64,000 nt of DNA from contig JBMNFA010000009.1 in NCBI GenBank assembly GCA_050949055.1, positions 257,600 to 321,599 on the forward strand, written 5' to 3'. The position numbers were made by a program, and so were the translations under genes. Shown here in pieces: positions 2,175 through 48,727 of this stretch; the first letter of the stretch is position 1; the number at the start of each line of letters is the position of its first letter. A model generated the notes under the pieces. That model was not told the origin of the DNA. It searched no databases and saw only the letters and a program-made list of their open reading frames with translations. This stretch comes from Bacillota bacterium (GTDB taxonomy: Bacteria; Bacillota; UBA994; UBA5500).

Positions 2175-2187
2175 TGCCTTACCTCAC

Positions 2188-5100: not shown

Positions 5101-5469
5101 CTCTGGAAGCAACTCATCGGTATACCCGGCCAACTTAGACCCTTGATAAGCAATGTGAGTACAAGCGATCAGTGTATGGGTCTTACCGCCACCAAACGCT
5201 GTCTCTAGGCGATGGATGGCCGGAGAGCCTGGATCACCTGCAATGCGACCAAACACTTCAGTCAGCGTTGTCCGAAGGCCCTGTGTAGGATAGGTGGCAT
5301 CGCGAAAGAACAGCTCCGCATCCGTGTAAATGCTATCAATGGGGGCCTTCCCCGAACGATAATACTGCAGGACTGGACCAAGTGATGCAGTAAAGACCTC
5401 GGGGTTAAAGGTACCCCGCAGAATCTCCTCACGCGGCATGCAGCTCTCAAGAACTGACCTCAAGTACAT
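2188..5469 (-). CDS. DUF499/BrxC-like large P-loop ATPase (1093 aa)
   Basis: ORF track. N-terminal Walker-A-like AFGGGKTHTL and Walker-B-like VIIMLDELAQY. Size and architecture are typical of the DUF499 ATPases that pair with DUF1156 methylases. SD AGGAGG precedes the ATG at 5467-5469. Confidence 0.7.
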   Translation of the reverse strand: MYLRSVLESCMPREEILRGTFNPEVFTASLGPVLQYYRSGKAPIDSIYTDAELFFRDATYPTQGLRTTLTEVFGRIAGDPGSPAIHRLETAFGGGKTHTLIACTHIAYQGSKLAGYTDELLPEQLLPHPGSVIVAGVPGDEIPVHRPQGDALVPYTLWGEIAYQVGGEELYRAVESEATSYAAPGRTYFERVFTGRKVIIMLDELAQYAARLEAARPNGAGQLAAFLMSLNGYARTHSGIAIILTLASAADAFSRQTNRLAKLISLVRGEDISAEEAIGLGERAIRDVSSVVARDAVQVTPVQAREISAVLAKRLFSLIDRVAAEETAAEYMELYRRNQNLLPQEACSENYRQRLQANYPFHPTLVDFLNNKLAGAENFQGTRGVLRVLALAVRSLWQNQHAVPMIHASHLELKSERVVNEILNRTGSSDLLFVLNADVGGVDTGSLEGGQSNAERADQENPHPEGYSFYRFTWQTVFLHSLVGRTQGLGSNLFGINEPDCLLAVSMPGLTPAQVQVALEEIKRSAFYLRADQGRYFASEEPTINSVLAHIRRTVNDKQIKSLLADVARKVIAERSDLFHIEHDVSLPEHIPDGKGRPILAVVSPVAEAVDVQAMITTKGPNIPREQQNLVFLLTPDAVRVTGEMGQAQLPGMNANGADRVMQRLFDFARHVSAIQMLQSKPQTYGVSPGRLREAEVHEHFSQQGLGLETLVAQSYRRLYYPSTTGHIVYREIRSASGESGRAFIEAIKSGLLEDGELLTAQHTGQSTLNNLKTYFFAQGDTVTVEKLASNFVCMRNWPVLESPRILGTLLRAGVEKGTWAIYKMGDAASSLPAEFFDKDTGVPFSADLLNSGYSLITLQGAKQRGWTKGEKIDPAKLQERVLYTLGSAGPSTSEGVRDQVTEQYGEVPAEDWQDNVGGLLQQGSLFAYQGTPDQTEKPKSLVGGAAAAIYTVQPEDVLITRAQVAEKGWLTTSQLPPGQPSPDQPSPGGPGVRLSGPEAMEKVWPLLKRLGSIYSRGASSQINELELSGLGLPAGGRLRLTLSDATPKSIQALGELLEVLVNVAKPDEQSDIFLAIDDPAEDCKFIKELNNK

Positions 5470-11683: not shown

Positions 11684-12213
11684 AGGGTATCACTCCTTTT
11701 TGGGCGTTGTATGTGGGTGTACTGGGAACCGGACCAGAGTTTTGTCAGGGATAGAATACGACAGCGAGCGGGCAATTCCCTTGCGAAAGAAGACCTTTCG
11801 CCGCTCATACTCCAGTTGCCCCGGCCGATCCTGGCGGCATGGCGGAGCTGGATCATCGTCGGGTCGCGCTGGAGGTAGTTCGTGCCATAGCCTGCCACAT
11901 TCGCGCCGATACTTAGCAAGACCAACAGGGGCAGCTCGCGAATGCGGAAAAACCGAAAACACCCTCTCTGCTAATTCAGCAGGAATCTTGCTCTCAGATG
12001 ACTAATTAAGTAGCGACCACAAGTATCTCCGAGTCTTCCAGTCCTAAGGATGTCATCTATGGAAGGAAGGCCGTTAGGGTGGCAGGGGAAACCCGGTCGC
12101 CTCCCGTCTGGAAAGGAGTAATCTGCGGCCGCTGACGCATGGCTTAGCTTGCGTCCGTTTGCCTTGCGCCTCCTTTTCAGAGCATGTTTGCTACTTGGAA
12201 AGGAGGTTTTTGC

Positions 12214-12735
12214 TTGCGCGGGAAATCGCCTGCTCTGGCGCGGGGCGCAATTCTGCTTTGCCTGCTGCTTGCTGTCGGCATGGCGTTAGTCTACCCCCGC
12301 CCGGGGCTGCCCTTTGAGGTGGCAGAGGGCGAAAAGGTGCGGCGGCTGAAGCAACACGAAGTTGATGATATCGTGGGGGTCTACCTGGCAGAAAGAGATG
12401 CGGGCAGTCGCCTGGTGCAAATCGTCAGCAGCCAAGGGTTTAAAGGCCTGATGCAGTTTCAGGTGGATATAGACCTGAACACCGAACAAATCAGCCAAGT
12501 ACGGGTGTTGTCCCAACAGGAGACCGAGGATTATGGCGGCTACGTCACCGAAGGCTGGTTCTTGGACAGATTTGTCGGCAAGAACGTCGGCACCAAGCTA
12601 AGATTAGTCAAGTTAGCGGCCAGCTCGCCAGAAGAAGTGGTGGCCATCACCGGAGCAACCGTCACCAGCCGGGGGGCTCTGGATGCGGTAAACAAATGCC
12701 TAGATAACTATCAGAGACTAAAACGGGAGGATTGA
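12214..12735 (+). CDS. membrane-anchored FMN-binding-domain protein (ApbE-type flavinylation motif)
   Basis: Start TTG at 12214 after SD AAAGGAGG (the ORF track starts earlier at 12184). N-terminal TM segment, then an FMN_bind domain with VVAITGATVTSRGALDAV (S/T-G-A-T/S flavinylation motif). Confidence 0.7.
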   Translation: MRGKSPALARGAILLCLLLAVGMALVYPRPGLPFEVAEGEKVRRLKQHEVDDIVGVYLAERDAGSRLVQIVSSQGFKGLMQFQVDIDLNTEQISQVRVLSQQETEDYGGYVTEGWFLDRFVGKNVGTKLRLVKLAASSPEEVVAITGATVTSRGALDAVNKCLDNYQRLKRED

Positions 12736-13850
12736 TGATCGTGAAGTTGACCAGGAAAGCGTTAGTCTATCTGTTGCTGATGGGCCTATTGGGCCTGCTG
12801 CTTACGGGCTGCTCCAGCCCGGCACCGATCGATGAGCCCAACAACCAGGAAGATGAAGGCGTAATAGCGTTCATTGGCCTGCCGGATGGCGACAAGGAGA
12901 TCGCCGTGGCTGATCTGAAGGAAATGGAGCCATATGAGACTGAGGCGTTAGGGATCAGCTCTTCGGGCGAAGAGGCCACCCATGAGGTGAAGGGCGTGCT
13001 ATTGGCCGATCTGCTGACCGACTGGGGAGTGGAGCAGCAAAGTCTGCAGAGCATCCGTGCGGTGGCCAAGGATGGCTATGCCATGGAACTGCCGGGCGAG
13101 ATTCTGCAGGGCGAAGTGATCCTGGCCTATGAATACGATGGAGAGCCCCTGTTTGAAGAAAGCGGCCCCATCCGCTTGATCGTGCCCAATCAGCGCTCCA
13201 TGTATTGGCTGAGGGGACTGGCCAGCCTGGAGATCAGCGGCGGAGGCAGCGGAGCGACTGCAGAGACCGACGCAACTAGAATTGTGTTCATCGAGACAGC
13301 TATCGGTTTGGTGCCCCATTATGACTACACCTATTACGAGAGCAATGACCAAGCAGTGAAGGTGGACGAGCTGTTTGCCAAGCTGGGCATAGAGGCCACC
13401 GAAGGCACTGCAGCCCTGTGCGCAGCCGACGGCTTCGAGAAGAACGAGCAGGTAGCCACCCTGCGGCAAGGCTATCTCAAGTTCACTGGAGAAGCAGCAC
13501 CGCTGTTCCTCTCCCCCGACCTGCCCAAGGGCATGCATGTGAAGCAGATCCTGTGGATGGCCGTGGAAGATACGGCGCTGGTTTCCTTCGTGCATGCGGG
13601 CGAGGCGTGGGAACAGAAGACGGTGGGAGACATCTCCGGCGTGCCGCTGACCGCCATTTTAGAGCAGGTTGGGGTACAGTCGGATGTGGGCTATATTCTC
13701 AAGGCGAGTGATGACTACACGGTGGAAATCGAGGCGGCCGACGCGGCCGATGGGCTGGTCTACATCAAGGATGACGTTGTGCGGGTCAGCTTCAGCCAGC
13801 TGCCCAAGAGCAGCAGCGTCAAGGGCCTGCTGAGTATCGAAGCCAAGTAG
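12732..13850 (+). CDS. lipoprotein with two tandem sulfite-oxidase-fold (YedY/MsrP-like) domains lacking the Mo-ligand Cys
   Basis: Lipobox LLTGCSS. Domain 1: VKGVLLADLL...AVAKDGYAMELP...VILAYEYDGEPLFEESGPIRLIVPNQRSMYWLRGLASLEI, parallel to the SO-family pattern WTGVxLxDLL...LAYEMNGEPL...PLRLVVPGWYG..KWL..IEV. The CAGNRR cysteine position reads GISSSG. A second weaker copy lies at residues ~200-372. Confidence 0.6.
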   Translation: MMIVKLTRKALVYLLLMGLLGLLLTGCSSPAPIDEPNNQEDEGVIAFIGLPDGDKEIAVADLKEMEPYETEALGISSSGEEATHEVKGVLLADLLTDWGVEQQSLQSIRAVAKDGYAMELPGEILQGEVILAYEYDGEPLFEESGPIRLIVPNQRSMYWLRGLASLEISGGGSGATAETDATRIVFIETAIGLVPHYDYTYYESNDQAVKVDELFAKLGIEATEGTAALCAADGFEKNEQVATLRQGYLKFTGEAAPLFLSPDLPKGMHVKQILWMAVEDTALVSFVHAGEAWEQKTVGDISGVPLTAILEQVGVQSDVGYILKASDDYTVEIEAADAADGLVYIKDDVVRVSFSQLPKSSSVKGLLSIEAK

Positions 13851-14144
13851 CGGGCTGCAGCGAGCAGCTCCTATTCCTCAAAACCTCCTGCTATTCCCAG
13901 CGAGCTAGTAGCCTAGACCCTTCGTTGCACTCAGGGTGACAGTCGCTAGGCGACTGTCTACAGCGATTGTCATTCCGAGCGCAAGCGATGAATCTGGATC
14001 CTTCCGCGAACTTTATGCTCGCCTGTCGAAGTGCTCAAGATGACTCGGCAAAGCCTGGCAGGAGAGCCTTCACCCACGATAACCGTTCACAGGCCGGGAA
14101 CATTGTTTCCGCTTTAGAGCCAAATAAGGAGGAGACATCGAATA

Positions 14145-14645
14145 ATGAAGAAGAGTATATCCATTGCGATCTTGCTGTTGGTCACCGCGTTGGTCTTCAC
14201 CGCCTGCCAGCAGCCGGCGCAGCCGACTCCCAATCCCGATGAGCAGCAGCCCGGCGATGATGTGCTGCAGTGGGCAGTCACCTTTGTTAAAGCAGACGGC
14301 AGCACTGTGGAGCTGACCCACGCAGACGACCTGGAGCTGGTGGAAATCGAGGCTACCAAGGCACGCAAGGATGGCAGCGAAGAGAAGCAGCAATGGAAAG
14401 GAGTGCCGCTGCAGGCTGCCTTGGATTATCTGGAGTTGACGGAGTTTGAGGTAATCGCCGCTGAATCGGCTGACGGATATTCGGTAGATCTGGACAAGGA
14501 AATGGTAGCCGACGAAGGGACCATCATTGGACTGGAGCTGAACGGCGAGCCGTTGGCGGAAGACGCTGGCCCAGCCCAATTGGTGGTGGCCAGCCAGCGC
14601 TCTAACTTCTGGATTAAGCAGCTGAGCAAGATCACGCTCAAGTAG
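14145..14645 (+). CDS. lipoprotein with one sulfite-oxidase-fold domain lacking the Mo-ligand Cys (paralog)
   Basis: Lipobox VFTACQQ. WKGVPLQAALDYL...AAESADGYSVDL...IIGLELNGEPLAEDAGPAQLVVASQRSNFWIKQLSKITL. SD AAGGAGGAG upstream. Confidence 0.6.
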   Translation: MKKSISIAILLLVTALVFTACQQPAQPTPNPDEQQPGDDVLQWAVTFVKADGSTVELTHADDLELVEIEATKARKDGSEEKQQWKGVPLQAALDYLELTEFEVIAAESADGYSVDLDKEMVADEGTIIGLELNGEPLAEDAGPAQLVVASQRSNFWIKQLSKITLK

Positions 14646-14656
14646 CGTGGGCAAAG

Positions 14657-15241
14657 ATGATTAGCCGCGCGCTCAGGCGTTTTTCACTATTTCAGTTGGT
14701 CATTCTGGCTTTGGTGGCCGCCCTGGGGGTGGCCTCCAAGCCAGTGGTGGTTCCGTTGGCCCATATGATCACCGGCCCGCTGATGATTCCCGGCGGGGTG
14801 TTGGCCGGTGGCTTTTATATGCTGTGGATCGTGCTGGGGGCTGGCTTAATGGATCGCCGGGGTGGGGGGACGCTGATCAGCCTGGTACAGGCTATCCTGA
14901 TCGTCTCGCTGGGCCTCTATGGCACCCACGGCATCGTCAGCTTCCTGACCTATCTGGCACCGGGTCTGGCTGTCGACCTGGTGTTCTGGCCGGGCGGCCG
15001 TTGGCGGGGCAGTTCCCTCGCCTTCTTTACCGCAGGGCTGATGGCCAACATCTGCGGCAGTTATCTGGTTAACTTAGTGTTCTTCCGCCTGCCCTGGATT
15101 CCGTTGCTGCTCAGCTTAAGCACCGCTGCTTTATCTGGAGGGCTGGGTGGTCTGATTGCTTATGCCGTGGTGCACAAGCTGCGGCAGACGGGATTGATGG
15201 GTTTAGGCGTCAGCGAGAATGACAAGTCTTCAGTTGAATGA
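14657..15241 (+). CDS. polytopic membrane protein, probable ECF-transporter S (substrate-capture) component
   Basis: 194 aa with about 6 predicted TM helices. Size, topology and position next to the EcfA1-A2-T genes fit an S component. Confidence 0.5.
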   Translation: MISRALRRFSLFQLVILALVAALGVASKPVVVPLAHMITGPLMIPGGVLAGGFYMLWIVLGAGLMDRRGGGTLISLVQAILIVSLGLYGTHGIVSFLTYLAPGLAVDLVFWPGGRWRGSSLAFFTAGLMANICGSYLVNLVFFRLPWIPLLLSLSTAALSGGLGGLIAYAVVHKLRQTGLMGLGVSENDKSSVE

Positions 15242-15337
15242 AGCGAAGCAAATAGAACCGTCTCCGTTGTTTCGTAAATGGAGCGAGACAAAAAGAACCG
15301 TCCCTTTTGTTCCGGTGGAGAGGAGGGGTAAGTGGCG

Positions 15338-16828
15338 ATGAAGAGGATAATGGCAGTTGTGGCGCTGGTGGCCATGCTGGGCATCGGCTATTGGCTGGGG
15401 CAGAGCCATGGTATTCGGAAGGGTGCAAACCTGCCTAGTACGGCGCTGACGATTGTTGGCGATGTGGCGACGACGGTGTGGGTGGAATCGCTGCAAGGCA
15501 TGCAGCGGGAGCTGGAGACGGTCACTCTGGAGAAGGGATCTATCCAGGCGATTCCTCTGCAATCGTTAGTTCAGTTGGCGGAGCCGCTAGCGGATAAGAA
15601 CAAGGTGGTCCTACGGGGAGTGGACGGGGTGGCCGCCGAGCTGAGCCAACTGGAAGGCGCATACATCACCTATTCGGCGGAGCACGGCTGGCATGCGAAA
15701 AATCCCAACCATCCGGTGAGCAGCAACATCAAACACCTGCAGGATATCATTGTGGTGGCCGAGGGATTCTCCTGGGACCGGGGCATCAACATCATGACCT
15801 CGGAGGAGAACCTGGACAACTTCACCGTAGGACAGCTGCTCAACGACGAACTATCGCTGGTGCGGATAGTGGACGGCACGGCCACGGTGGAGCATGAAGG
15901 ACAACGGATCAGCTCGTCCGCAGTGGTCTTCAAGCGGATGCTGGGGCTCGGCCAGCTGCTGGAGCGAGTTGAGCTGCCGGAGCCAGAGAACCTGGCGGTG
16001 ATGGGTGAAAACGGCGCTTTCGTCATGGTGGACATGTCCATGGGCGGTTATCTGGAGGTGGGCGAGCACTCGGTGAACTATGTGGTCCTCGGCGACTACA
16101 GCCAGACGGTGAGGGACGTGCGAGCGATGATGTTCAACGCGCCGGAACTGTCCATCATGCAGACCTTTGATGACACGGTGCGGCGGTTGGAGAACGGCGA
16201 GAAGGTGATGATCGCCTTCTTGGACGGGCTTAGCTATCGGCAGTATCGCCGGGCCGTGGAGACTGGAATGGCACCCTATCTGCAATCGCTGCCGCCGGCA
16301 GAGAAGGCGCTGAGCATATACCAGCCGGTGACCAACGCCGGGTTTGCCGCCATGATTACCGGGCAGCCTCCGGGGGTGAATGGGGTGCACTCGCGCAGCC
16401 AACGGGGATTGAACGTGCCCAGCATCTTCGGACGGGCGGTGGAGCTGGGCCAGAAGGCCATCCTGGTGGAAGGCAATATTCAGATCCTGGACACCGAGGT
16501 GGATCCCCGCCTCAATCTGGACCAGAACCAGCAGCATGGCACCGATGACGAGGTGTTTGCCTCCGGGTTGCAGGCCATTGCTGAGCAGCCGGATCTGCTG
16601 ATGGTGCATTTCCACGGCATCGACGACTGCGGGCATCAGTTCGGACCGCTGGCAGAGCAGACGCTGCAGAAGATTCAGCAGGTGGATTCCTACCTGCAGG
16701 CGCTGGCCGCAGAGTGGGACGGCACCATCATCGTGGTGGCCGACCACGGCATGCACGTCGAGGGTGACGGCGGCAGCCACGGGCAGGCCCGGGCAGAGGA
16801 TTTTGTGGTGCCATACATCGTGAGATAA
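15338..16828 (+). CDS. membrane-anchored fusion: N-terminal SO-fold-like domain + type I phosphodiesterase/nucleotide pyrophosphatase (alkaline-phosphatase superfamily)
   Basis: ATG at 15338 after SD GGAGAGGAGGGG (the track starts at GTG 15332). N-terminal TM anchor. C-terminal MIAFLDGLSYRQY...HFHGIDDCGHQFGP...VVADHGMH (NPP/AlkP metal-site motifs). Confidence 0.6.
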   Translation: MKRIMAVVALVAMLGIGYWLGQSHGIRKGANLPSTALTIVGDVATTVWVESLQGMQRELETVTLEKGSIQAIPLQSLVQLAEPLADKNKVVLRGVDGVAAELSQLEGAYITYSAEHGWHAKNPNHPVSSNIKHLQDIIVVAEGFSWDRGINIMTSEENLDNFTVGQLLNDELSLVRIVDGTATVEHEGQRISSSAVVFKRMLGLGQLLERVELPEPENLAVMGENGAFVMVDMSMGGYLEVGEHSVNYVVLGDYSQTVRDVRAMMFNAPELSIMQTFDDTVRRLENGEKVMIAFLDGLSYRQYRRAVETGMAPYLQSLPPAEKALSIYQPVTNAGFAAMITGQPPGVNGVHSRSQRGLNVPSIFGRAVELGQKAILVEGNIQILDTEVDPRLNLDQNQQHGTDDEVFASGLQAIAEQPDLLMVHFHGIDDCGHQFGPLAEQTLQKIQQVDSYLQALAAEWDGTIIVVADHGMHVEGDGGSHGQARAEDFVVPYIVR

Positions 16829-16877
16829 TGCAAAAACGGGGACAGTCCCCATTTTTGCATTAGAGGAGGATGAGCGG

Positions 16878-17390
16878 ATGAAGAAGGTTCTAATCGGCGT
16901 GGTGGGTCTGTTGGTGGTGGTGATCGCCATCACTGGATATGTGAACTGGCGGCAGAGCGCCGCCCTGCGGGAAGCTCAGGCCAACGCTACGCTGGCAGTG
17001 ACTTGGGGCGATGACAACTCGGCCACTTTGAGCATGCAGCAGGTGCAGGCACTGCCGGCGGAAGAATTCGCGGTGGTGCAGCGGAGCAGCGACGCGCCGG
17101 ATAGCGATCAGGTGTTTAAGGGCGTGGCGCTAAAGGTGGCGCTCTCGGAACAAGGGGTGCCCTTGGACGATAGCAGCCTGGTGACGGTGAAAGCGGCAGA
17201 TGGTTATGCGGTTGCCCTCACCGGCAGCGAAGTGCTGCAGGATGAAAACGTCTATTTGGTCTACCAACGGGGAGGCGAGCCTCTGGGCACCAAGGCATCG
17301 GGTGGAACCGGCCCCTTCCAGCTGGTCATTCGCCAGGATACCTACGCCCAGCGTTGGTGCAAGTTTGTGAGCGAGATTCAGGTAAAATGA
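16878..17390 (+). CDS. membrane-anchored sulfite-oxidase-fold domain protein lacking the Mo-ligand Cys (paralog)
   Basis: N-terminal TM anchor. VFKGVALKVALSEQGV...KAADGYAVAL...YLVYQRGGEPLGTKASGGTGPFQLVIRQDTYAQRWCKFVSEIQV. Confidence 0.55.
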   Translation: MKKVLIGVVGLLVVVIAITGYVNWRQSAALREAQANATLAVTWGDDNSATLSMQQVQALPAEEFAVVQRSSDAPDSDQVFKGVALKVALSEQGVPLDDSSLVTVKAADGYAVALTGSEVLQDENVYLVYQRGGEPLGTKASGGTGPFQLVIRQDTYAQRWCKFVSEIQVK

Positions 17391-18073
17391 AGCCGCTAAT
17401 CGAGGTCAAGCAGTTATCCTTTAGCTACAGTAAGCAGTCCCCTCCCCTGTTTGAGCAGGTCGATCTGGAAATCTTCCCAGGGGAAGTGGTGGCGTTGCTG
17501 GGCAAGAGCGGGGCCGGCAAGAGCACCCTTTGTCATTGCCTGGCCGGCATCATTCCCCACCTGATCAAGGGGCAGATCAGCGGCCAGGTGCGGGTGGACG
17601 ATCTGCTCACCACGGACAGCAATCCTCCCACCCTGGCCCAAAGGGTGGGGGTTGTGTTTCAGGATCCGGATATGCAGCTGTTCATGCCCACGGTGGAGGA
17701 CGAACTGGCTTTTGGACTGGAGAATCTTTGCCTGCCGCCCCAGGAAATTGGGGAACGGATTGAGCAATGCCTACAGTTGGTGGGCATGAGCGCCAAGCGT
17801 CTGTGTCACCCCCATCAGCTCTCGGGGGGAGAGAAGCAGCGGGTGGCGCTGGCTGCTGTGTTGGCCATGAACCCCCAGGCGTTGATTTTGGACGAGGCCT
17901 TCTCCCAGCTGGACCGCGCCGGTCGCGGCGCCTTGAAGCAGATTATGCTACAGCTTAAGGACGCAGGCAAGGCGATAGTGATGGTGGAGCACGATTGGTC
18001 CAATCTGGACATCGCAGATCGGGTGCTGGTGCTGAAGGAGCGGCAACTGCAGCCTTTTCGGGGTGAACTATGA
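17387..18073 (+). CDS. ecfA: ECF-transporter ATPase component EcfA1 (ABC ATP-binding protein)
   Basis: ATG at 17387 overlaps the upstream stop (ATGA). Walker A GKSGAGKST, signature LSGGEKQRVALA, Walker B LILDEA. Confidence 0.85.
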   Translation: MKPLIEVKQLSFSYSKQSPPLFEQVDLEIFPGEVVALLGKSGAGKSTLCHCLAGIIPHLIKGQISGQVRVDDLLTTDSNPPTLAQRVGVVFQDPDMQLFMPTVEDELAFGLENLCLPPQEIGERIEQCLQLVGMSAKRLCHPHQLSGGEKQRVALAAVLAMNPQALILDEAFSQLDRAGRGALKQIMLQLKDAGKAIVMVEHDWSNLDIADRVLVLKERQLQPFRGEL

Positions 18074-18753
18074 GCGAGTGCAAATCGGTGATTGTTGCTC
18101 GGGACGTTAGTTTCAGCTATCCCAAGGGCCCCCCGCTGTTCGAACGGCTCAACTTGACGCTGTATCAGGGCGAGTTTACGGCCATCGTGGGCGAAAACGG
18201 CAGCGGCAAGACGACACTGGGCAAGTTGCTTTGTGGCATCCTGCGCCCCGCCGGGGGCAGCGTGAGCATTTTGGGGGAGGAGAGCCATAACCTCAGCCTG
18301 GGGAGCATCGGGCAGAAGATCGGCTATCTGTTTCAGAACCCGGATCAGCAGCTGTTTGCGCTGACGGTGCGGGAGGAGCTCTGCTGGCCGCTGCAGCTGC
18401 GGGGCGAAGATGCGGAGTCGGTGCGGCGGAAGGTGGGGCAGGTGCTGGGAAGGTTCCAGCTTGCGGGCTTGGAGGACAAGCTGCCCTTCCGCTTGAGCCG
18501 TGGGGAGAAACAACGGTTGGTGCTGGCGGCGATTATGCTGCAGCGGCCCAGCTACCTGATTTTGGACGAGCCCACCAGCAGCCTGGATCAGGAGCGGCGG
18601 GCAGGATTGTCCCAAGTGCTGCAGGAGTTGCAGGCAGAGGGCATCGGCATGGCTGTGATCACCCATGATTCAGATTTTCTGCAGCAGCATGCACAGCGGG
18701 TGATCCAACTGCGGGAAGGGAGGGTGGTGGCCGATGAACGGGTCTCGCCTTGA
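18070..18753 (+). CDS. ecfA: ECF-transporter ATPase component EcfA2
   Basis: GENGSGKTTL, LSRGEKQRLVLA, LILDEPTSSLD. Start overlaps the EcfA1 stop. Confidence 0.85.
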   Translation: MSECKSVIVARDVSFSYPKGPPLFERLNLTLYQGEFTAIVGENGSGKTTLGKLLCGILRPAGGSVSILGEESHNLSLGSIGQKIGYLFQNPDQQLFALTVREELCWPLQLRGEDAESVRRKVGQVLGRFQLAGLEDKLPFRLSRGEKQRLVLAAIMLQRPSYLILDEPTSSLDQERRAGLSQVLQELQAEGIGMAVITHDSDFLQQHAQRVIQLREGRVVADERVSP

Positions 18754-19465
18754 CCCCAGAACCAAGCTGGTGATCGTGCTGTCCATCTCTTCCCTGGGTG
18801 TGTTCATCGGCGACCCCTGGGTGCTGCTGGGTGTAGCCGGCGTATCCTGGCTGCTGGCCACCCTGCTGGGCGGCAACCCTGGGGGCGCCGCCCGGCGCTG
18901 GCGCCGGATGCTGTGGCTGTTTCTGCCCATCGTCTTGATGCAGAGTGTGTTTGCGCCTGGGGGCATGCGGTTATTAGGCATCGGCTCGCTGACCCTGCTC
19001 AGCAGCGGCGGACTGCTGAAGGGGTTGGCCATGCTCTGCCGGCTGCTGATTGTGGTGGTGGCCGCCAGCATCATGACCACGTCCAACTCGCGCGATGTGG
19101 TGCAGGGACTGATCCAGTGGAAGTTGCCTTATGAGATCGCCTTTATGGTCTCGCTGGCGGCGCGCTTCTTGCCCATGCTGGGCGAGGAAGTGCGTGACTC
19201 GCTGACGGCGCTGCAGCTAAGAGGCATCGAGCCAGAGGCTCTGCCGCTACGGAAACGCCTGCAGCTCTATTCGTACCTGCTGATGCCGGTGATGGTCAGC
19301 ACGGTGATTCGGGCGGAGCAGCTTTCATTGGCCATGGAGATGCGTGCCTTTCGCGCCTTCCCCACCCGTACCAGCCACCGCAGCTTGCAGCTTAGGGGAG
19401 CGGATTATGCCTGGATGCTAGGCAGCGCGGCGGTGACGGTGGCGGCCTTGGTTGCCCTGCGCTAG
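18734..19465 (+). CDS. ecfT: ECF-transporter transmembrane T component (EcfT/CbiQ family)
   Basis: 243-aa polytopic protein with conserved arginine-containing coupling helices (ARFLPML...RGIE). Overlaps the ecfA2 end. Confidence 0.75.
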   Translation: MNGSRLDPRTKLVIVLSISSLGVFIGDPWVLLGVAGVSWLLATLLGGNPGGAARRWRRMLWLFLPIVLMQSVFAPGGMRLLGIGSLTLLSSGGLLKGLAMLCRLLIVVVAASIMTTSNSRDVVQGLIQWKLPYEIAFMVSLAARFLPMLGEEVRDSLTALQLRGIEPEALPLRKRLQLYSYLLMPVMVSTVIRAEQLSLAMEMRAFRAFPTRTSHRSLQLRGADYAWMLGSAAVTVAALVALR

Positions 19466-19565
19466 AGCGGGTGTGAGAAAATAATCCGTAAGCGCTGGCG
19501 CTCAGGGTGTCCGCATCGTGTCATTCCGAGCGCAGCGAGGAATCTATACGGAGGTGAACAACAAG

Positions 19566-20321
19566 ATGCGTATCTTTTCGGTTTCCGGCATCAGCAAGTC
19601 CGGAAAGACGACTACCATAGAAGAGATCATCAAAGAACTACGGCGGCGGCGATACACCGTGGGCAGCATCAAGGACATCCACTTCGAGGCCTTTGCCATC
19701 GATGGCCCGTCCACCAACACCGCCCGCCACCGCCGGGCGGGATCAGAGCTGGTCACCGCCTGGGGGCTGGCCGAGACAGATGTTCTCTTCCCCACCCGGC
19801 TGCCCCTGGAGCAACTGCTCCGCTTCTATAGCCAGGACTTTGTGATCATCGAAGGTTTTGCCGAAGGGCCCATCCCCAAAATCGTCACGGGGCATTCGCT
19901 GGAACGGGTGGATGAGCGGTTGGACGACCTGACCTTCGCTATTTCCGGACGCATTGCCGCCGGTATGGATGAGTACCGGGGGCTGCCGGCGCTGAGCGCA
20001 CTCACCCAGGTGGCCGAACTCTGCGACCTGATTGAAGAAAAAGTGTTTGAACGGCTACCCCACTTTCCTGGAGAGTGTTGCGCCGCCTGCGGGCAGGATT
20101 GTGTGCAGCTGGCCGCTCGCATCCTCAAGGGGGAAGCCCAGCGCAGTGACTGCCGCCTGGTGGCCGAGCGGCAGAAGGTGGAGCTGTGCATCGACGGCGA
20201 GCCGATCAAGATGGTGCCCTTTGTGCAGAGCATCCTCTATAACGCGGTGCGGGGCGTGGTGACGGAGTTGGACGGTTACCAGCCGGGCAAGAAAGTGGAG
20301 ATCAAGATTGGCTCCATTTGA
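19566..20321 (+). CDS. mobB: MobB-like P-loop protein (molybdopterin-guanine dinucleotide biosynthesis protein B) with a Cys-rich C-terminal extension
   Basis: ATG 19566 after SD GGAGG (the track starts earlier). MRIFSVSGISKSGKTTTIEEII...VGSIKDIHFEAFAIDGPSTNTARHRRAGS parallels the MobB P-loop and GxDSxRHRxAG block. The C-terminal about 100 aa carry GECCAACGQDC. Confidence 0.7.
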   Translation: MRIFSVSGISKSGKTTTIEEIIKELRRRRYTVGSIKDIHFEAFAIDGPSTNTARHRRAGSELVTAWGLAETDVLFPTRLPLEQLLRFYSQDFVIIEGFAEGPIPKIVTGHSLERVDERLDDLTFAISGRIAAGMDEYRGLPALSALTQVAELCDLIEEKVFERLPHFPGECCAACGQDCVQLAARILKGEAQRSDCRLVAERQKVELCIDGEPIKMVPFVQSILYNAVRGVVTELDGYQPGKKVEIKIGSI

Positions 20322-21018
20322 AGACCTGCTGGACCCGGCTGATTGGGAGCAACTGGAGGTCTGCCGCTATCAAGTGGTGCGGCAGTTCCGCAGCAAGAGA
20401 AACCAGGTCTGTCTGGTACGGGTAAGCCGAACAGACGGGACCGCAGGGGAGCTGGTGGTGAAGCGGGCGGGAGAGCAGGTTGTGGATTTGAGTCGCGAGG
20501 CAAGTCTGCAGGCGCTGCTTCATCAACGGGGGCTAGCGGTTCCCCGGGTGCTGCTGGCAAAACCCCGCTGCCTGGTGATGCAATACATCACCGGAGAGAC
20601 CCTGGTAGACTATCTGGAGCAGGTGGAACGGGAATACCCCCTCTGCCCAGAAACGCTGCAGAGCGCAGTACGCCCGCTAGCTCAGCAACTAGCCGCCTGG
20701 TTGCAGCTGTTTTATCGGATCACCGCGGACAGCTTTGGCCGCGCCATGATCAGGGGCGACGTCAACCTGCGCAACTTCCTCGTCCGCGATGATAAAATCT
20801 TTGGAGTGGATTTTGAGGATGCCCGGCCGGGTGACATGGCCGAGGATGCAGGCCGCATCCTGGCCTTTGCCCTCACCTACGACCCGGCTTTCACCCCCTG
20901 GAAGCGAGCGATCGTAGAGGAGCTGTCCCTGGCTTTTCGGGAGGTGCTGCAGCTGGCGGCAAAGCCCCTGCAGCGCGCGATGGAGGCTGAACTGCAGGCA
21001 ATTCGCGAACGAAGATAG
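20308..21018 (+). CDS. protein-kinase-like / phosphotransferase-fold protein
   Basis: GDVNLRNFLVRDDKIFGVDFEDA (catalytic-loop-like D-x-N...N and DFE/DFG-like). Start overlaps the mobB end. Confidence 0.5.
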   Translation: MAPFEDLLDPADWEQLEVCRYQVVRQFRSKRNQVCLVRVSRTDGTAGELVVKRAGEQVVDLSREASLQALLHQRGLAVPRVLLAKPRCLVMQYITGETLVDYLEQVEREYPLCPETLQSAVRPLAQQLAAWLQLFYRITADSFGRAMIRGDVNLRNFLVRDDKIFGVDFEDARPGDMAEDAGRILAFALTYDPAFTPWKRAIVEELSLAFREVLQLAAKPLQRAMEAELQAIRERR

Positions 21019-24448: not shown

Positions 24449-25327
24449 TTATGCCTGGCACATGGTAGGGAACATGAATCGCTCCGGGAATTTGAAGTCT
24501 GCAGGCAGGAAGAAGAGACCGTCCGACGACTGCCAATCCTCGCACGCGAGCGGCAGGCTAGTCTGATCCGGGGTAAAATGGAACTGCAGCCGCTTGACTC
24601 CCGCCGGGACGATGGCGGCAACGATCTGATCCAGATTGAACGGCCGGGCACTGATCACGTCGTAGAGCTGCAGCAGCTCTCCTTCCACCCGATGGATGGT
24701 GACGGCGTCCAATTCCGGCAAGTAGTAGACATCCTGACCACATAGATGCAGGCAGTAGAACATCAGCAGCCAGGCAACGTTGACTACACCCAAGGTCTGT
24801 GAAACCGGTTGGCGCTGGCGGCTGAGACGTAGCAGCGTCTGCAAGTCTGCCGGCAGCGACAGGTCCAGGCGGCGCGGGGCTTGCGGCGCTGATGCCAGTT
24901 GCCCCAGCGAGACGGAAAACTGCTGCTGCTCTAGGCGCTGGAAACCGAACCGGGGATAGAAGTCCAGCACCGAACGGTTGGCAAACAGGAAAGCCAGGTC
25001 ATAGGAGTTGGCATATTGCGAAAGGGCGAAGCGCATCAGCTTCCCCGCCAACCCCTGCCCCCGATGATCCGGGTGGGTCATCACCGTCCCCACCTGGATG
25101 GCCTTGATTGGCTTACCATGACAAACCATGTCCATGCGGCTGATGGATACGTTAGCTATCACTTGCTCATGGTACAGATAGGAGAAGCAGACATACGCGT
25201 CGCCCCAATAGCCCAAGTTGTACCAGTGCTCAAAATCGATGCTGAATATCTGTTTGGCCAGCAGCCCGAAGCTTTGACGATAATCAGCGTGATGTTTGTA
25301 GTCATGGATCAACCGGTATTCCTGCAC
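24449..25327 (-). CDS. GNAT-family N-acetyltransferase
   Basis: AIQVGTVMTHPDHRGQGLAGKLM (acetyl-CoA-binding motif A). Confidence 0.8.
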   Translation of the reverse strand: MQEYRLIHDYKHHADYRQSFGLLAKQIFSIDFEHWYNLGYWGDAYVCFSYLYHEQVIANVSISRMDMVCHGKPIKAIQVGTVMTHPDHRGQGLAGKLMRFALSQYANSYDLAFLFANRSVLDFYPRFGFQRLEQQQFSVSLGQLASAPQAPRRLDLSLPADLQTLLRLSRQRQPVSQTLGVVNVAWLLMFYCLHLCGQDVYYLPELDAVTIHRVEGELLQLYDVISARPFNLDQIVAAIVPAGVKRLQFHFTPDQTSLPLACEDWQSSDGLFFLPADFKFPERFMFPTMCQA

Positions 25328-25456
25328 TGACCATACCTCCCGGTGCGCTACAGATTGCAGTCCTTATCCTCTATGTTCTTCATCCAAGTGCCAAACGCCT
25401 GCCAGAAGCTTGCTTGGTTATTCTAATATTCGGGACACTTGGAACGGTAATCATTA

Positions 25457-25485
25457 TTGATAAATCAGCTAAACAATTATATAAT
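25457..25485 (+). promoter_or_regulatory. sigma-A-type promoter TTGATA-17-TATAAT for the peroxiredoxin gene, overlapped by a Fur/PerR-like AT-rich palindrome (AATCATTATTGATAA)
   Basis: Consensus hexamers with 17-nt spacing, 120 nt upstream of the start codon. Confidence 0.55.
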
Positions 25486-25606
25486 TAAGGACAAACACAG
25501 GGCTTGCCAGGCGTTGCCTGGGGGCTACTGTTGCGCCGTTGGCACCTCTGGCGTTTGGCCCGTTCTTGAGGGCAGGCCGACCGGCGACGAAAAGGGAGGG
25601 GATCCG

Positions 25607-26203
25607 ATGACAGTAATGGTTGGGAAACCGGCACCAAACTTCAAAGCCAGCGCCTTTCACCAAGGCAAGTTCACCAAGATTGAGCTGGAGCAGTTGCGCG
25701 GCAAGTGGGTAGTCCTTTGCTTCTACCCCGGCGACTTCACCTTTGTCTGACCGACCGAGTTGACATCGATAGCGGTTCGCTATCCTGAATTGCAGGCGTT
25801 GGACGTGGAAGTGTTGAGCTGCAGCGTGGACAGCATCCATTCGCACAAAGTCTGGCAGGAGACCGAGCTCTCCAAGATGGTAGAGGGCGGCGTGCCTTAC
25901 CCGATGCTCTCTGACCAGGGCGGCAAGTTGGGCCGGCTGTACGGGGTGTACGATGAGGATGCAGGCGTGAATGTACGTGGCCGCTTCCTGATCGATCCCG
26001 ATGGCATCATCCAGGCGATGGAAGTGCTTACCCCGCCGGTGGGCCGCAATGACGCCGAGTTGCTGCGGCAAGTGAAAGCTTACCAACATCAGCGGGCGAC
26101 CAAAGAAGTGATTCCGGCTGGCTGGCAGCCTGGCAAACCCACCCTGAAACCCTCGACCGCTTTGACTGGGCGGGTGTGGGAAGTATGGAAACCGGAGGCC
26201 TAA
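25607..26203 (+). CDS. prxU: selenocysteine-containing peroxiredoxin (AhpC/Prx1 subfamily; in-frame TGA at 25748-25750 at the peroxidatic position)
   Basis: The ORF track splits it at a TGA, but both halves share one frame. They read ...WVVLCFYPGDFTFV-[TGA]-PTELTSIAVRYPEL..., i.e. the universal FTFVCPTE motif with Sec for the peroxidatic Cys. SD GGGAGGGG before ATG 25607. Confidence 0.8.
25768..25784 (+). promoter_or_regulatory. candidate bacterial SECIS hairpin (GAUAGCG-GUU-CGCUAUC) 18 nt downstream of the UGA
   Basis: Perfect 7-bp stem with a G/U-containing apical loop at the distance expected for SelB-dependent recoding. Confidence 0.45.
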
Positions 26204-26236
26204 CCGGTCTACCGCACCCTGTCACACATACATAAA

Positions 26237-26269
26237 CCCCTGGGACGGCGCTGTCCCAGGGGTTTTTGT
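26237..26269 (+). terminator. rho-independent terminator (CCCCTGGGAC-loop-GTCCCAGGGG + TTTTTGT)
   Basis: 10-bp GC stem followed by a T-run, between convergent prx and the DASS transporter gene. Confidence 0.8.
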
Positions 26270-26327
26270 CCAGTTCGCCTAATTCGCCGCCGACTTGGCT
26301 GATTGGCCCTGCCTTCTGCAGGCCTAG

Positions 26328-27791
26328 TTACCTCACGATGCCAAACAGGTGCCACAAGGGTACACTGAGGCAGATGGCCACGGCAATAGCCGTGATAAAG
26401 ATCAGCGAAGCCCGGGCGGTATCCCCGGGAGTGATCACATCCTGGCCGGAGGAACCGACGGCCACGATGTAGGTGGCACTCTGATAAGGCAAGAAGAAAA
26501 CCAGATGTCCGATATATTGCACGGCAAAACCCAGCACCCAAACATTCAGTCCCGCCCTCCCGGCCACCGCCGCCAACACCAGAATGCAGATGGTCAGCAG
26601 CGCATTGACGGAAACAACCAGAAAGCGCAGGCCGATGGTGATGGCCATCAAGGCGGCAATGAATAACAGGCTGTTGCCACTGAGCGGAGACAGCAACAGC
26701 GAGACCTGTTGACCGAGAAAGCCGTCGATGCCCAATTCGGGGATGATTACACCCAGGTTAAGAATCACGCCCAGGAAAATTAGGGTTGCCCACCCGAGTT
26801 CGGATTGCAGCGACTTTTTGTCGACCACTCCCGTGGCCAACAGCGCTGACAGGCCAGCCAGCGCTACGATGACAGCATGGATGCCGTGCATCGCCTCTGT
26901 TACCCAGAGGGCAATAGCGACGACCAAGACGACCAGAGTGATCTTCTCTTTCCGGGAGAAGGGCCCCAACTCCTGCAGCTGCCGCTTGACCGCTGTCAGA
27001 TCGGCGGCCACCTTCTGTTTCGGGGCCATGAACAGCATGATCAACAGGAATGCCCCCAGCAGCGTCAGTACGCCGGGAACCAAGGCTGCTTTCAGCCATC
27101 CCATCCAGCTCATGGCCGCCTGCTCGCTTGCAGGCAGCATGTCCAACATCAGCAGGTTGGTACTGCTGCCGGTGAGGAAGATGGGCGCGGTGGCCACAAA
27201 GCCCAAATACATGGCCATGAACAGGCCCGCGCTGGCCTTGCTCTTCATCGGCAGCCCCATGCCCCGCACCAGCTCGGGCACAAACTTAGCCGCAATACTC
27301 ACCTTGGCCACAATGCTGGGGATAGCGGGTGCAGCGATGAGGCCGGTGATCAACAGCGCCAGCGATTGTCCCAGGTAGGTGGGGGGCATCGTCTTCAGCA
27401 TCAACAGGGTAGAACGCCGCAGCAAGCCGGATTTGGCCACCCCTAAGCCCAAGCCCATCGCCCCCAGCATCAACCACCAGGTCTTGCTATGGAAGGTGGC
27501 AAAGGCAGTCTCGAAGGGAACGATTTTCAGGGCCACCCAGCCGACGCCCATGATCAGGGCCACCACGTAGTCATCGAAGACCCGGCCGATCCAAAAACAG
27601 ATGGCCGCCGCCAGCAAGCCCAGGGTGTACATCGCCTGCGGTGACAGGTCTGCCCAAGGGGGCTGCAGAGCGATGAACAGGCCCATGGCGATTCCGACAA
27701 CGGCCATGGTCAGTTTGAGTTTGTCCAGTTGGAGCCTTTGTTTGGTTGGCTTGGAGGCAACAACAGGGTTGGTAGCAGGAATAGTGTGCAT
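26328..27791 (-). CDS. DASS/SLC13-family anion (di/tricarboxylate or sulfate):Na+ symporter-type permease
   Basis: 487 aa, about 12-14 TM, two-repeat architecture with GSSTNLLMLDML-type hairpin motifs. Confidence 0.65.
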   Translation of the reverse strand: MHTIPATNPVVASKPTKQRLQLDKLKLTMAVVGIAMGLFIALQPPWADLSPQAMYTLGLLAAAICFWIGRVFDDYVVALIMGVGWVALKIVPFETAFATFHSKTWWLMLGAMGLGLGVAKSGLLRRSTLLMLKTMPPTYLGQSLALLITGLIAAPAIPSIVAKVSIAAKFVPELVRGMGLPMKSKASAGLFMAMYLGFVATAPIFLTGSSTNLLMLDMLPASEQAAMSWMGWLKAALVPGVLTLLGAFLLIMLFMAPKQKVAADLTAVKRQLQELGPFSRKEKITLVVLVVAIALWVTEAMHGIHAVIVALAGLSALLATGVVDKKSLQSELGWATLIFLGVILNLGVIIPELGIDGFLGQQVSLLLSPLSGNSLLFIAALMAITIGLRFLVVSVNALLTICILVLAAVAGRAGLNVWVLGFAVQYIGHLVFFLPYQSATYIVAVGSSGQDVITPGDTARASLIFITAIAVAICLSVPLWHLFGIVR

Positions 27792-39434: not shown

Positions 39435-39527
39435 TCGATATAAATGGCGGAGAGGGCGGGATTCGAACCCGCGATGCAACTTTCGCCGCATACTCGATTT
39501 CCAGTCGAGCGCCTTCGACCAGCTCAG
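39435..39527 (-). tRNA. tRNA-Ser (anticodon GGA), CCA encoded
   Basis: Folded by hand: 7-bp acceptor GGAGAGG/CCUCUCC, anticodon loop CUGGAAA, long variable arm, T-loop GGUUCGAAUCC, 3' GCCA. Confidence 0.85.
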
Positions 39528-39791
39528 CCACCTCTCCGTGTTTACGGGGTTGTTATGAGGCATTGGTCTCTCCTCAGAACCGTCACAAATCCATTCGATT
39601 TGGCACTTGCACGCTCAAACAGTATACCGCACAGGCACTGTCATGTCAATGTCCACTGTCTTCCACCAGGCGCGTTGCTTTATCAAACAGACAGCGTCTG
39701 CTGTTGTAGCTGCAGCTTCAGCGGTTTATAACTTGTGTCTTTAGTGTAAGTCCCATTTACGGGAGTATTCAAGTTTTTTTGGAAGCAGCTT

Positions 39792-45841: not shown

Positions 45842-45932
45842 TGGCGGAGAGAGAGAGATTCGAACTCTCGGAGCAGGGTCACTGCTCACCCGCTTTCGAG
45901 GCGGGCGCCTTAAACCACTCAGCCATCTCTCC
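45842..45932 (-). tRNA. tRNA-Ser (anticodon CGA), CCA encoded
   Basis: Acceptor GGAGAGA/UCUCUCC, anticodon loop CUCGAAA, long variable arm, GCCA end. Confidence 0.8.
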
Positions 45933-45933
45933 G

Positions 45934-46398
45934 CTAAGTGTTTTGACGCAGTTCCAGGAAAAACTTGCGCAGGAGCTGGCTGCTGGCATCCGCCAATACG
46001 TCAGGAATCACTTCCACCTGGTGGTTCAACCGTTGGTGTTGCACCAGGTTCAGCACACTGCCGCAAGCGCCTGCCTTGGGATCGGCTGCCGCATAAACCA
46101 AGGTAGGAATGCGGGCCAAAACGATGGCACCGGCGCACATGGCGCAGGGCTCCAGCGTGACGTAGAGGGTGCAACGGGTTAAGCGCCACCCACCCAGATG
46201 CTGATTGGCCAATCGAATGGCTAGCAACTCGGCGTGGGCCGTGGCATCGTGGGTCGTCTCGCGCAGGTTATGCGCTCTGGAGATGATCTCACCGTCGCGC
46301 ACGATCACCGCACCGATAGGCGTTTCACCAAGGGCGTAGGCTAACTTGGCCTCGTTCAGTGCCTCGCGCATGAAAAGCTTGTGTTGCTCCACGCGCAA
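45934..46398 (-). CDS. tadA: tRNA-specific adenosine(34) deaminase TadA
   Basis: HAELLAI...LYVTLEPCAMCAGAI (CDA zinc motif HAE...PCxxC), 154 aa. TTG start with AGAGGG SD. Confidence 0.88.
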   Translation of the reverse strand: MRVEQHKLFMREALNEAKLAYALGETPIGAVIVRDGEIISRAHNLRETTHDATAHAELLAIRLANQHLGGWRLTRCTLYVTLEPCAMCAGAIVLARIPTLVYAAADPKAGACGSVLNLVQHQRLNHQVEVIPDVLADASSQLLRKFFLELRQNT

Positions 46399-46498
46399 AA
46401 CCCCTCTTTCGCTGCCGAAATTCGTGCGCTACGCACAGACAGCTCTAATTCAAGTTGCAGAAGTGCCTATATGCAGACCATTGAAGGTTAACTGCCAG

Positions 46499-46574
46499 TG
46501 GTGCACCCGGAGGGAATCGAACCCCCGACACGCGGTTTAGGAAACCGCTGCTCTATCCCCTGAGCTACGGATGC
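46499..46574 (-). tRNA. tRNA-Arg (anticodon CCU)
   Basis: 76-nt cloverleaf, anticodon loop UUCCUAA, CCA encoded. Confidence 0.85.
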
Positions 46575-46661
46575 AAGCCATCAAAGAAAACAAAAAACAT
46601 TTGCCGCCCAGAAAAAGAAAAGCGAAACAAAAAGAACCGTCCCTTTTGTTTCAGTAAGGAG

Positions 46662-46738
46662 TGGCGCGCCCGGCAGGATTCGAACCTGCGACCACCGGAT
46701 TCGTAGTCCGTTACTCTATCCAGCTGAGCTACGAGCGC
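46662..46738 (-). tRNA. tRNA-Arg (anticodon ACG; the TadA substrate)
   Basis: 77-nt cloverleaf, anticodon loop CUACGAA, CCA encoded. Confidence 0.85.
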
Positions 46739-46746
46739 ATGAGAAA

Positions 46747-46841
46747 TGGCGGAGAGGGCGGGATTCGAACCCGCGACACAGGTTTAAGCCCGTGTAATCG
46801 CTTAGCAGGCGACCGCCTTCGACCTACTCGGCCACCTCTCC
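46747..46841 (-). tRNA. tRNA-Ser (anticodon GCU)
   Basis: 95 nt, long variable arm, anticodon loop CUGCUAA, GCCA end. Confidence 0.85.
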
Positions 46842-46910
46842 GCATCGCCTAACTATCATAGCACAGAATGGGGTTGCCTTCAACTGCAACCTTCTGGCAG
46901 CAGATAGTAA

Positions 46911-46999
46911 TGGCGGAGAGAGAGGGATTCGAACCCCCGGTCCCTTGCGGGATCACTAGTTTTCAAGACTAGCGCCATAAACCGCTCGGCCATCTCTCC
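46911..46999 (-). tRNA. tRNA-Ser (anticodon UGA)
   Basis: 89 nt, anticodon loop CUUGAAA, 7/5 acceptor/T arms so not tRNA-Sec, GCCA end. Confidence 0.85.
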
Positions 47000-47069
47000 G
47001 CATTTGCGAGTATCGCAAAAAACAGTTTACCACAGAACGATGAAAAGTGTCAATTTTGGCGGTCTGCCA

Positions 47070-48347: not shown

Positions 48348-48399
48348 GCTTCTACCGTCTCCTTTCAAAAAACAATCTAGGCATTGCATCACGCTATCA

Positions 48400-48727
48400 T
48401 ATCGCCTGCATCCCGTGGCGTGGCCACCATGCAGAACCATCAAGTCCCTTCTCTGCGACCGGAACGACAGTTGGGCCGGGGGTTCCGCAAACTATGTAGC
48501 CAGAAAAAACAACGTCCCTCACATCTCTGTGAGGGACGAGCAAAACCCGCGGTACCACCCTGTTTGGCCACACTGCGGTGTGACCCCCTTGCTGCAGATA
48601 ACCGCTGCTGCGGAGCCAGGATTAGGCTGGCTAGCTCGGAAGTGGACTTGCCTGCGCCAGTCGCGATTTGCACCAACCATCGCGTCTCTATATCTGGCCG
48701 TCAAACAAACGTCTTCGTCATGGCTTT
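48400..48727 (-). promoter_or_regulatory. T-box riboswitch leader of serS (T-box AGGGUGGUACCGCGGG; terminator CGUCCCUCACA-GAGA-UGUGAGGGACG + UUGUUUUUU)
   Basis: Canonical T-box sequence seen as its reverse complement at 48547-48560. Intrinsic terminator at 48507-48546. About 380-nt leader between promoter and start codon. Specifier not resolved (UCC in ACUUCCGAG is a candidate). Confidence 0.8.

Follow-up and report, generated by a model that had tools for sequence, protein, structure and literature searches.

A PrxU-family peroxiredoxin gene with an in-frame UGA, probably read as selenocysteine, at the peroxidatic position in an uncultured Bacillota bacterium

Does the TGA triplet at 25748–25750 end a short gene, or does it encode the selenocysteine (Sec) of an intact peroxiredoxin? 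The question arises in a 64-kb stretch of DNA from an uncultured Bacillota bacterium, which was analyzed as a whole and is referred to here as the window. The window is G+C-rich. Two open reading frames, at 25457–25750 and 25760–26203, follow one another in the same frame, as a sequence-only reading of the locus had claimed, and translation through the TGA at 25748–25750 joins them. From the ATG at 25607 to the TAA at 26201–26203, the plus strand holds a single frame of 199 codons in which this TGA is the sole internal one. The joined product reads ...LCFYPGDFTFV-U-PTELTSIAVRYPEL..., which contains the segment ...FYPGDFTFV-U-PTELTSIAV... given in the earlier reading. Public gene calls, made on metagenome contigs of up to 11.6 kb from the same organism, divide prxU into pieces of 47 and 147 amino acids. 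We put the probability that this is an intact gene for a PrxU-family peroxiredoxin, functional and Sec-decoded, at about 0.9. The coding elements of the gene are as follows.

25594 to 25601, plus strand: Shine-Dalgarno sequence GGGAGGGG, read from the sequence; the ATG follows after 5 nt and lies 7 nt from the GGAGG core
25607 to 26203, plus strand: prxU coding sequence, 198 codons including Sec48, then the TAA stop
25748 to 25750, plus strand: UGA codon (Sec48) at the peroxidatic position, placed by alignment with the Cys of solved structures and by conservation of TGA in homologues

The joined protein, with Cys put in place of the stop, scores 341.9 bits against the NCBIfam model NF040737 (peroxi_PrxU), for which the equivalog cut-off is 270, bearing out the PrxU-type identity proposed earlier. 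The next best model, AhpC TIGR03137, gives 194.6 bits, under its equivalog cut-off of 272. Pfam matches are to AhpC-TSA and 1-cysPrx_C, and the best relatives with solved structures are Prx1-type 2-Cys peroxiredoxins, which align with residues 4–184 at E values of 2e-49 to 1e-43. In these alignments the UGA falls exactly on the peroxidatic Cys, within FTFVCPTE, the position that had been claimed for it from the sequence. The active-site motif PxxxTxxC appears in the window protein as P41-x3-T45-x2-U48 (TxxU), and the catalytic residues Pro41, Thr45, Sec48, and Arg124 are all present, with P41, T45, and R124 conserved among the family. The window protein shares with typical 2-Cys Prx1/AhpC proteins (PDB 4fh8, AcePrx-1; 1qmv, human PRDX2; 1we0, AhpC) the fold, the PxxxTxxC-type site, the conserved Arg, and the C-terminal 1-cysPrx_C domain. 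In contrast, the two residues by which a typical 2-Cys peroxiredoxin is recognized, a peroxidatic Cys and a C-terminal resolving Cys, are here Sec and Ile169, respectively. The product of prxU is thus very probably a peroxiredoxin of 198 residues that has the Prx1/AhpC fold and carries Sec48 where the peroxidatic Cys would be.

The long form of PrxU described by NF040737 carries an N-terminal extension of ~30 residues with a conserved Cys (GCxRP). The window protein, which lacks this extension and whose match to the 233-position model begins at profile position 31–35, is a short form. Among the matches listed, 34 of the 83 Sec forms (~40%) have an upstream in-frame motif of this Cys-containing kind. 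Short forms are common in the family, and the missing extension does not exclude membership of PrxU. The in-frame stretch at 25457–25606 was considered as such an extension and rejected: adding it to the protein does not move the start of the NCBIfam match below profile position 31, and the promoter described below sits inside it. In the closest genome among the matches listed, a Bacillota metagenome-assembled genome (L001) whose PrxU shares 92% amino-acid identity with the window protein, a stop codon stands immediately 5' of the prxU ATG. Both this genome and a second one, which encodes an 88% orthologue (L090), have AGGGAGG-type sequences at the same place as the Shine-Dalgarno sequence in the window.

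The split annotation could also be taken at face value, with the locus giving a 47-residue N-terminal peptide and a separately initiated 147-residue protein. The frame at 25760–26203 does open with a TTG start codon, and in public contigs it has been annotated as a gene. However, TTG 25760 has no preceding Shine-Dalgarno sequence, and the C-terminal fragment would have neither the active-site loop nor one half of the fold. In the conserved frame this TTG codes for Leu52 (of ELT), and relatives have CTG, TTA, or ATT instead, with the orthologous fragments called from other starts at lengths of 137 and 142 amino acids. Two separate products are for these reasons a highly improbable outcome.

Homologues were sought by scanning one genome per bacterial species. 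Among the best 80 of 588 confirmed relatives, the codon is TGA in 82 of 83 homologous genes and TGC in one, a recurrence that places the position of the UGA far beyond chance. The loci listed from these best 80 include members of Bacillota, Chloroflexota, Actinomycetota, Desulfobacterota-type bacteria, Acidobacteriota, Ignavibacteria, Zixibacteria, and Calditrichota. Between the window and the closest genome, ~72–77% of synonymous sites are changed, while pN/pS is 0.07 over the whole of prxU, 0.117 for the 47-codon part 5' of the UGA, and 0.053 for the 150-codon part 3' of it. The low values on both sides of the UGA indicate that both halves are translated and under purifying selection.

These comparisons bear directly on the possibility that an AhpC-type gene has acquired the TGA as a nonsense mutation peculiar to this lineage, with its downstream part no longer translated. 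The 47- and 147-amino-acid pieces produced by gene callers agree with such a pseudogene, as does the fact that Sec machinery is not seen in the 64-kb window. Against it are the same-codon TGA in many phyla, the strong constraint on the 150 codons that follow the TGA, where synonymous divergence is close to saturation and the comparison with the closest genome shows neither a frameshift nor an extra stop, and the compensatory changes that maintain a hairpin downstream of the UGA. The orthologues, which had been named as the test for a nonsense mutation, therefore speak against one, and at the level of sequence comparison the pseudogene reading is effectively refuted.

Insertion of Sec in bacteria is expected to involve an RNA hairpin downstream of the UGA, and one candidate lies within the coding sequence.

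25768 to 25784, plus strand: predicted bacterial SECIS-type hairpin, 7-bp stem GAUAGCG/CGCUAUC with a GUU loop, placed by folding and by fit to the bacterial SECIS (bSECIS) model

The hairpin consists of GATAGCG at 25768–25774, GTT at 25775–25777, and CGCTATC at 25778–25784, so that the perfect 7-bp stem with a GUU loop that had been described 18 nt after the UGA is indeed present. The gap between the UGA and the stem is 17 nt, with the stem starting at the 18th nucleotide, and the gap between the UGA and the apical loop is 24 nt. In the published bSECIS model, the loop has the form N1-G-U-N-N2 and lies 16–37 nt from the UGA (PMC13188914, Fig. 2). With its G-GUU-C loop, 7 bp, and spacing of 24 nt, the window hairpin fits this model, and its predicted energy of -7.3 kcal/mol as a bare hairpin (-8.4 kcal/mol with dangling ends) is at the model's limit of -7.5 kcal/mol. 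It resembles the bSECIS consensus in being a stem-loop just 3' of the UGA within coding sequence, but differs from that consensus and from the Escherichia coli fdhF SECIS in having neither a bulged U nor a conserved lower stem. The fdhF hairpin starts 11 nt after its UGA, compared with 17 nt in the window. An extended lower stem that would enclose the UGA (predicted at -15.9 kcal/mol) was dropped from consideration, its partner sequences not being conserved in the closest genome.

Taken alone, the hairpin is weak evidence, and it gains significance only from comparison with orthologues. The local 56-nt fold has a z-score of only -0.36, and 184 of the 2011 TGA triplets in the window (9%) precede a hairpin that fits the bSECIS model, with 6.6% preceding one at least as stable as that in prxU. 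Hairpin statistics by themselves were accordingly rejected as evidence. A scan for perfect stems gives too low a count, because some family hairpins have a mismatch inside the stem (40 of 83 fit the model among the matches listed), and covariation counts were therefore used instead.

In PrxU orthologues the loop of the hairpin falls on codon +7 or codon +9 relative to the UGA. The register seen in the window occurs in 14 genomes and places the loop on a Val codon, the ninth after the UGA (codon 57). Across the 15 orthologues sharing this register, 94.3% of stem cells pair, compared with 23–39% when the partner is slid, and three pairs show compensatory changes (C-G/G-C/U-A; A-U/G-C/G-U; C-G/G-C/U-G). 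The third stem codon, in the 3' arm, specifies Arg, Ser, or Gly depending on the genome, with its 'GC' nucleotides invariant, and the Ile/Val stem codon ends in A throughout, which together point to a constrained RNA rather than a constrained protein. The hairpin uses rare codons: ATA makes up only 9% of the Ile codons in the window and GTT 13% of the Val codons. Between the window and the closest genome, codons 54–59 show zero synonymous changes, compared with ~72% elsewhere, and in the 88% orthologue the changes within the hairpin are confined to the loop and the closing pair. A second register, found in 68 Sec-type genes among the matches listed, has the hairpin two codons nearer the UGA, with an AGUU or GGUC loop. 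Here, 91.6% of cells are paired, five pairs are compensatory, and two third-codon positions covary perfectly (A..U / G..C). The comparison of bSECIS structure across orthologues that the sequence-only reading had called for thus finds the hairpin kept by compensatory changes in both registers. Among five relatives with Cys in place of Sec, the hairpin is absent from three, a remnant in one, and intact in one (L066).

Translation through the UGA need not in principle mean Sec. The codon could be read by a near-cognate or suppressor tRNA carrying Trp, Cys, or Arg, as might happen in a lineage whose Sec machinery has been lost, and we regard this as improbable. The same low probability attaches to its expected consequence, a peroxiredoxin with little or no activity. 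Many homologues, as translated by public pipelines, do have Trp at this site: of the best 120 database proteins, 76 have the exact active-site motif, with the residue given as Cys in 22 and as 'Trp' in 53. However, these Trp calls are artefacts of applying genetic code 4 to TGA, as seen in the one 'Trp' protein that was checked. TGA is the ordinary stop codon in 15 of the 46 other genes in the window, which indicates that the standard genetic code is in use. Catalysis would be lost with Trp or Arg as the peroxidatic residue, yet conservation extends over the entire active site, and the RNA-level constraint on the hairpin among the closest relatives of the window would serve no purpose without SelB. 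Finally, prxU adjoins selC and selA in a relative.

That relative is Alkalibacter mobilis (L078), a cultured member of the Bacillota that has the hairpin in the same register as the window. In its genome, tRNA-Sec lies no more than 140 nt beyond prxU and selA (PF03841, 484 bits) comes next, an adjacency that gives indirect support to the Sec reading. Within the 64-kb window, no selA, selB, selC, or selD was found by ARAGORN, Rfam, or Pfam and NCBIfam searches of ~40 open reading frames, and tblastn and blastn searches of the window with Alkalibacter selA and selC gave no match. The window has six tRNA genes, none of which is tRNA-Sec. Because this stretch of an uncultured genome is without selA, selB, selC, and selD, we infer Sec insertion at the UGA in the source organism from the gene and its relatives. 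A search of the window for other genes with an in-frame TGA returned only the LarC1/LarC2 junction, which fails the SECIS fit.

On the Sec reading, a ribosome arriving at the UGA at 25748–25750 would encounter the hairpin at 25768–25784, which would recruit SelB with GTP and Sec-tRNA(Sec), and Sec would be inserted in place of termination. Lacking selenium or the Sec machinery, translation would end after 47 residues. By the chemistry of the family, the selenolate in the Pro41/Thr45/Arg124 pocket would attack H2O2 or an organic hydroperoxide and become a selenenic acid.

Typical 2-Cys enzymes have their resolving Cys in EVCPAGW. The window protein reads EVIPAGW, and Ile169 aligns with that Cys, confirming the replacement that had been noted. 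Most PrxU proteins have T, M, or I here; among the matches listed, the residue in the 83 Sec forms is T (40 forms), M (22), I (3), L (1), or C (4), and in 13 the motif was not found. The protein had on this ground been called a '1-Sec' peroxiredoxin. The loss of the canonical C-terminal resolving Cys stands, but the '1-Sec' label is not established, because 80 of the 83 Sec forms among the matches listed have Cys38, which lies ten residues N-terminal to Sec48. Typical 2-Cys peroxiredoxins have instead the Phe of VLFFYP at this place. With no C-terminal resolving Cys, the selenenic acid could be resolved either directly by thioredoxin or by way of Cys38, and a thioredoxin-type reductant would then complete the catalytic cycle. 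NCBI names the NF040737 family 'thioredoxin-dependent peroxiredoxin', which implies the direct route. That Cys38, on strand beta-3, is itself the resolving residue, through an intrasubunit selenenylsulfide with Sec48, is a speculative proposal that we consider unlikely. If true, PrxU would represent a mechanistically distinct, atypical 2-Cys (Sec/Cys) class, whose resolving position no described Prx subfamily uses.

The signals around the coding sequence would allow prxU to be expressed as a unit of its own.

25445 to 25459, plus strand: possible Fur-family (PerR/Fur/Zur-type) operator CGGTAAT-C-ATTATTG, overlapping the -35 box
25457 to 25485, plus strand: predicted sigma-70-type promoter, -35 TTGATA (25457–25462), 17-nt spacer, -10 TATAAT (25480–25485)
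25475 to 25486, no strand assigned: perfect 12-bp palindrome AATTATATAATT, spanning the -10 box
26237 to 26267, plus strand: predicted intrinsic terminator, 11-bp G+C-rich stem, 4-nt loop, then UUUUU

The promoter, earlier described as near-consensus, matches at 11 of 12 positions and is the sole hit in 25300–26400, where shuffled sequences give a mean of 0.3. The strong terminator also proposed is likewise borne out: its stem (26237–26262) has a predicted energy of -28.4 kcal/mol with z = -5.57, and 0 of 200 shuffles were as stable. This stem begins 34 nt past the stop codon, and the minimum free energy fold adds three A-U pairs beneath it. The terminator was missed by a consensus scanner. 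Transcription would run from the sigma-70 promoter to this terminator, and the flanking genes, a divergent acetyltransferase gene and a convergent DASS-family transporter gene, indicate that prxU is monocistronic. Neither a thioredoxin partner nor a regulator is encoded near prxU.

The suggestion of a Fur/PerR-like box at the promoter fared less evenly. The promoter contains no match with three or fewer mismatches to the Bacillus subtilis 7-1-7 consensus for PerR (TTATAATNATTATAA) or Fur (TGATAATNATTATCA), and the candidate operator shares only 10 of the 14 positions of the B. subtilis Fur consensus, which explains why it was missed at that threshold. What stands is a core of the Fur-family type, TAATCATTA (TAAT-C-ATTA) at 25448–25456, that overlaps the -35 box and recurs in the 88% orthologue. 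There, TGATAATCATTATTGA overlaps the TTGATT -35 box of that gene in the same arrangement as in the window, and a related box occurs in a third genome (L047). A TAAT-N-ATTA core upstream of prxU is found only in the window and these two genomes, with a background expectation of 0.012 per 270 nt. Of the related loci that were fetched, 12 have Fur-family genes no more than 3 kb away from prx, and the 64-kb window contains none. Control by a PerR-like repressor is plausible from these sequence features, and an operator of this type over the -35 box may give peroxide- or metal-responsive transcription. The 12-bp palindrome AATTATATAATT is unique in the window (0.02 expected at one mismatch or fewer); it is not conserved in the closest genome or in the 88% orthologue.

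Sec-containing peroxiredoxins had been described in the sequence-only reading as known from only a few anaerobes, a statement that is outdated. PrxU was reported from Eubacterium acidaminophilum in 2001 (Sohling et al, 2001, Biol Chem 382:979, as cited in PMC9312934 and PMC13188914), 12 genes had been recognized in finished genomes by 2006, including those of Syntrophomonas, Alkaliphilus, and Symbiobacterium (PMC1794560), and recent reviews count Sec peroxiredoxin among the experimentally verified prokaryotic selenoproteins. The window gene resembles the E. acidaminophilum PrxU and the NF040737 family in its TxxU site with the UGA at the peroxidatic Cys, in lacking the canonical C-terminal resolving Cys, in its intragenic SECIS hairpin just downstream, and in its anaerobe-type Bacillota host. 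It belongs to this family without complication, as a short form, and is ordinary, because the family is well known, curated, and widespread. No new selenoprotein question is opened by it, the family having been known since 2001, being abundant in metagenomes, and having its own NCBI model. The two hairpin registers would document a SECIS element moving within conserved coding sequence. The value of the finding lies chiefly in annotation, where an intact gene is either split into pieces of 47 and 147 amino acids or given an active-site Trp under genetic code 4. For the organism, the presence of prxU marks a probable selenium user and a probable oxygen-sensitive anaerobe that uses a selenoenzyme for its defence against peroxide.

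Across the orthologous family of prxU, the selenocysteine peroxiredoxin gene of the window, the SECIS hairpin lies in two registers within codons +5 to +11 downstream of the UGA (alignments A2, A3), each of which shows its own covariation. The loop falls on Val codon +7 in 68 genes of the related loci and on Val codon +9 in 15 genes (from 14 genomes and the window), as well as in the related locus L089 and the 88% orthologue L090. Genes with the +9 register come mostly from Bacillota, with exceptions that include L046 (Sumerlaeota), L050 (Atribacterota), and L080 (Anaerolineaceae). Three genomes carry two prxU paralogues a few kb apart, and each paralogue in these pairs has its own TGA and its own hairpin:

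L033, 581 and 3130: prxU paralogue pair
L049, 2140 and 3142: prxU paralogue pair
L057, 166 and 1165: prxU paralogue pair

Among the 120 closest database proteins (P0001-P0120), at least 53 have a tryptophan at the active-site position. For P0001, the one Trp protein that was checked (L089, 55-645), this position is encoded by TGA, and the DNA yields a match to the protein under genetic code 4 only. Therefore, public metagenome gene calls mistranslate the PrxU selenoprotein.

Upstream of the window gene is an inferred 5′ UTR, which is open in the prxU frame by happenstance, has no Rfam match, and is unlike those of L090 and of L001, the 92% orthologue:

25486-25606, plus strand: inferred prxU 5′ UTR, ~115 nt, G+C-rich

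A single TGA also divides larC, the nickel-pincer cofactor gene, into LarC1 (322 amino acids, with a His-rich stretch at its end) and LarC2 (148 amino acids), which share a common frame:

57691-59148, minus strand: larC, split into LarC1 and LarC2, TGA at 58180-58182
59149-60069: LarB, directly upstream of larC

Directly after the larC TGA, CCGGCAGTTGCTGG can fold into a hairpin of 5 bp with the loop AGUU, but its distance from the TGA is shorter than the bacterial SECIS model allows. With this arrangement, LarC1 and LarC2 could be made as separate polypeptides, or the stop codon could be read through; a frameshift joins the two LarC halves in Lactobacillus plantarum.

Other loci in the window include a molybdenum/tungsten-cofactor (Moco) riboswitch and the gene cluster that it precedes, which encodes an FMN-binding protein, two proteins with molybdopterin-oxidoreductase domains, MobB, and ECF/ABC-type transporter components (ABC_cobalt, two ABC_tran, and CbiQ). 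A DUF499/DUF7744 protein, which scores below threshold against the NCBIfam model 'anti-phage-associated DUF499' (157.9 bits, cut-off 1200), adjoins a DUF7680 protein, and the two may form a defence-system pair:

12015-12134, plus strand: Moco riboswitch, 73 bits (gathering score 36)
12184-21018, plus strand: gene cluster preceded by the riboswitch
1566-5469, minus strand: DUF499/DUF7744 protein, 1093 amino acids

Three tRNA-Ser and two tRNA-Arg genes are clustered beside serS, with a fourth tRNA-Ser elsewhere; no tRNA-Sec is found among these Ser/Arg tRNA genes of the window:

45842-48443, minus strand: Ser/Arg tRNA cluster (45842-46999) and serS
45934-46398: tadA, between two tRNA genes of the cluster
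47070-48443, minus strand: serS, adjoining the cluster
39445-39537: fourth tRNA-Ser

In Alkalibacter mobilis (locus L078, NZ_JADNRK010000009.1), a prxU with the TGA is adjacent to genes for tRNA-Sec and selA:

3001-5336: prxU, tRNA-Sec, and selA
3739-3835: tRNA-Sec
3903-5336: selA

This adjacency is a direct genomic link between the peroxiredoxin family and the selenocysteine machinery.
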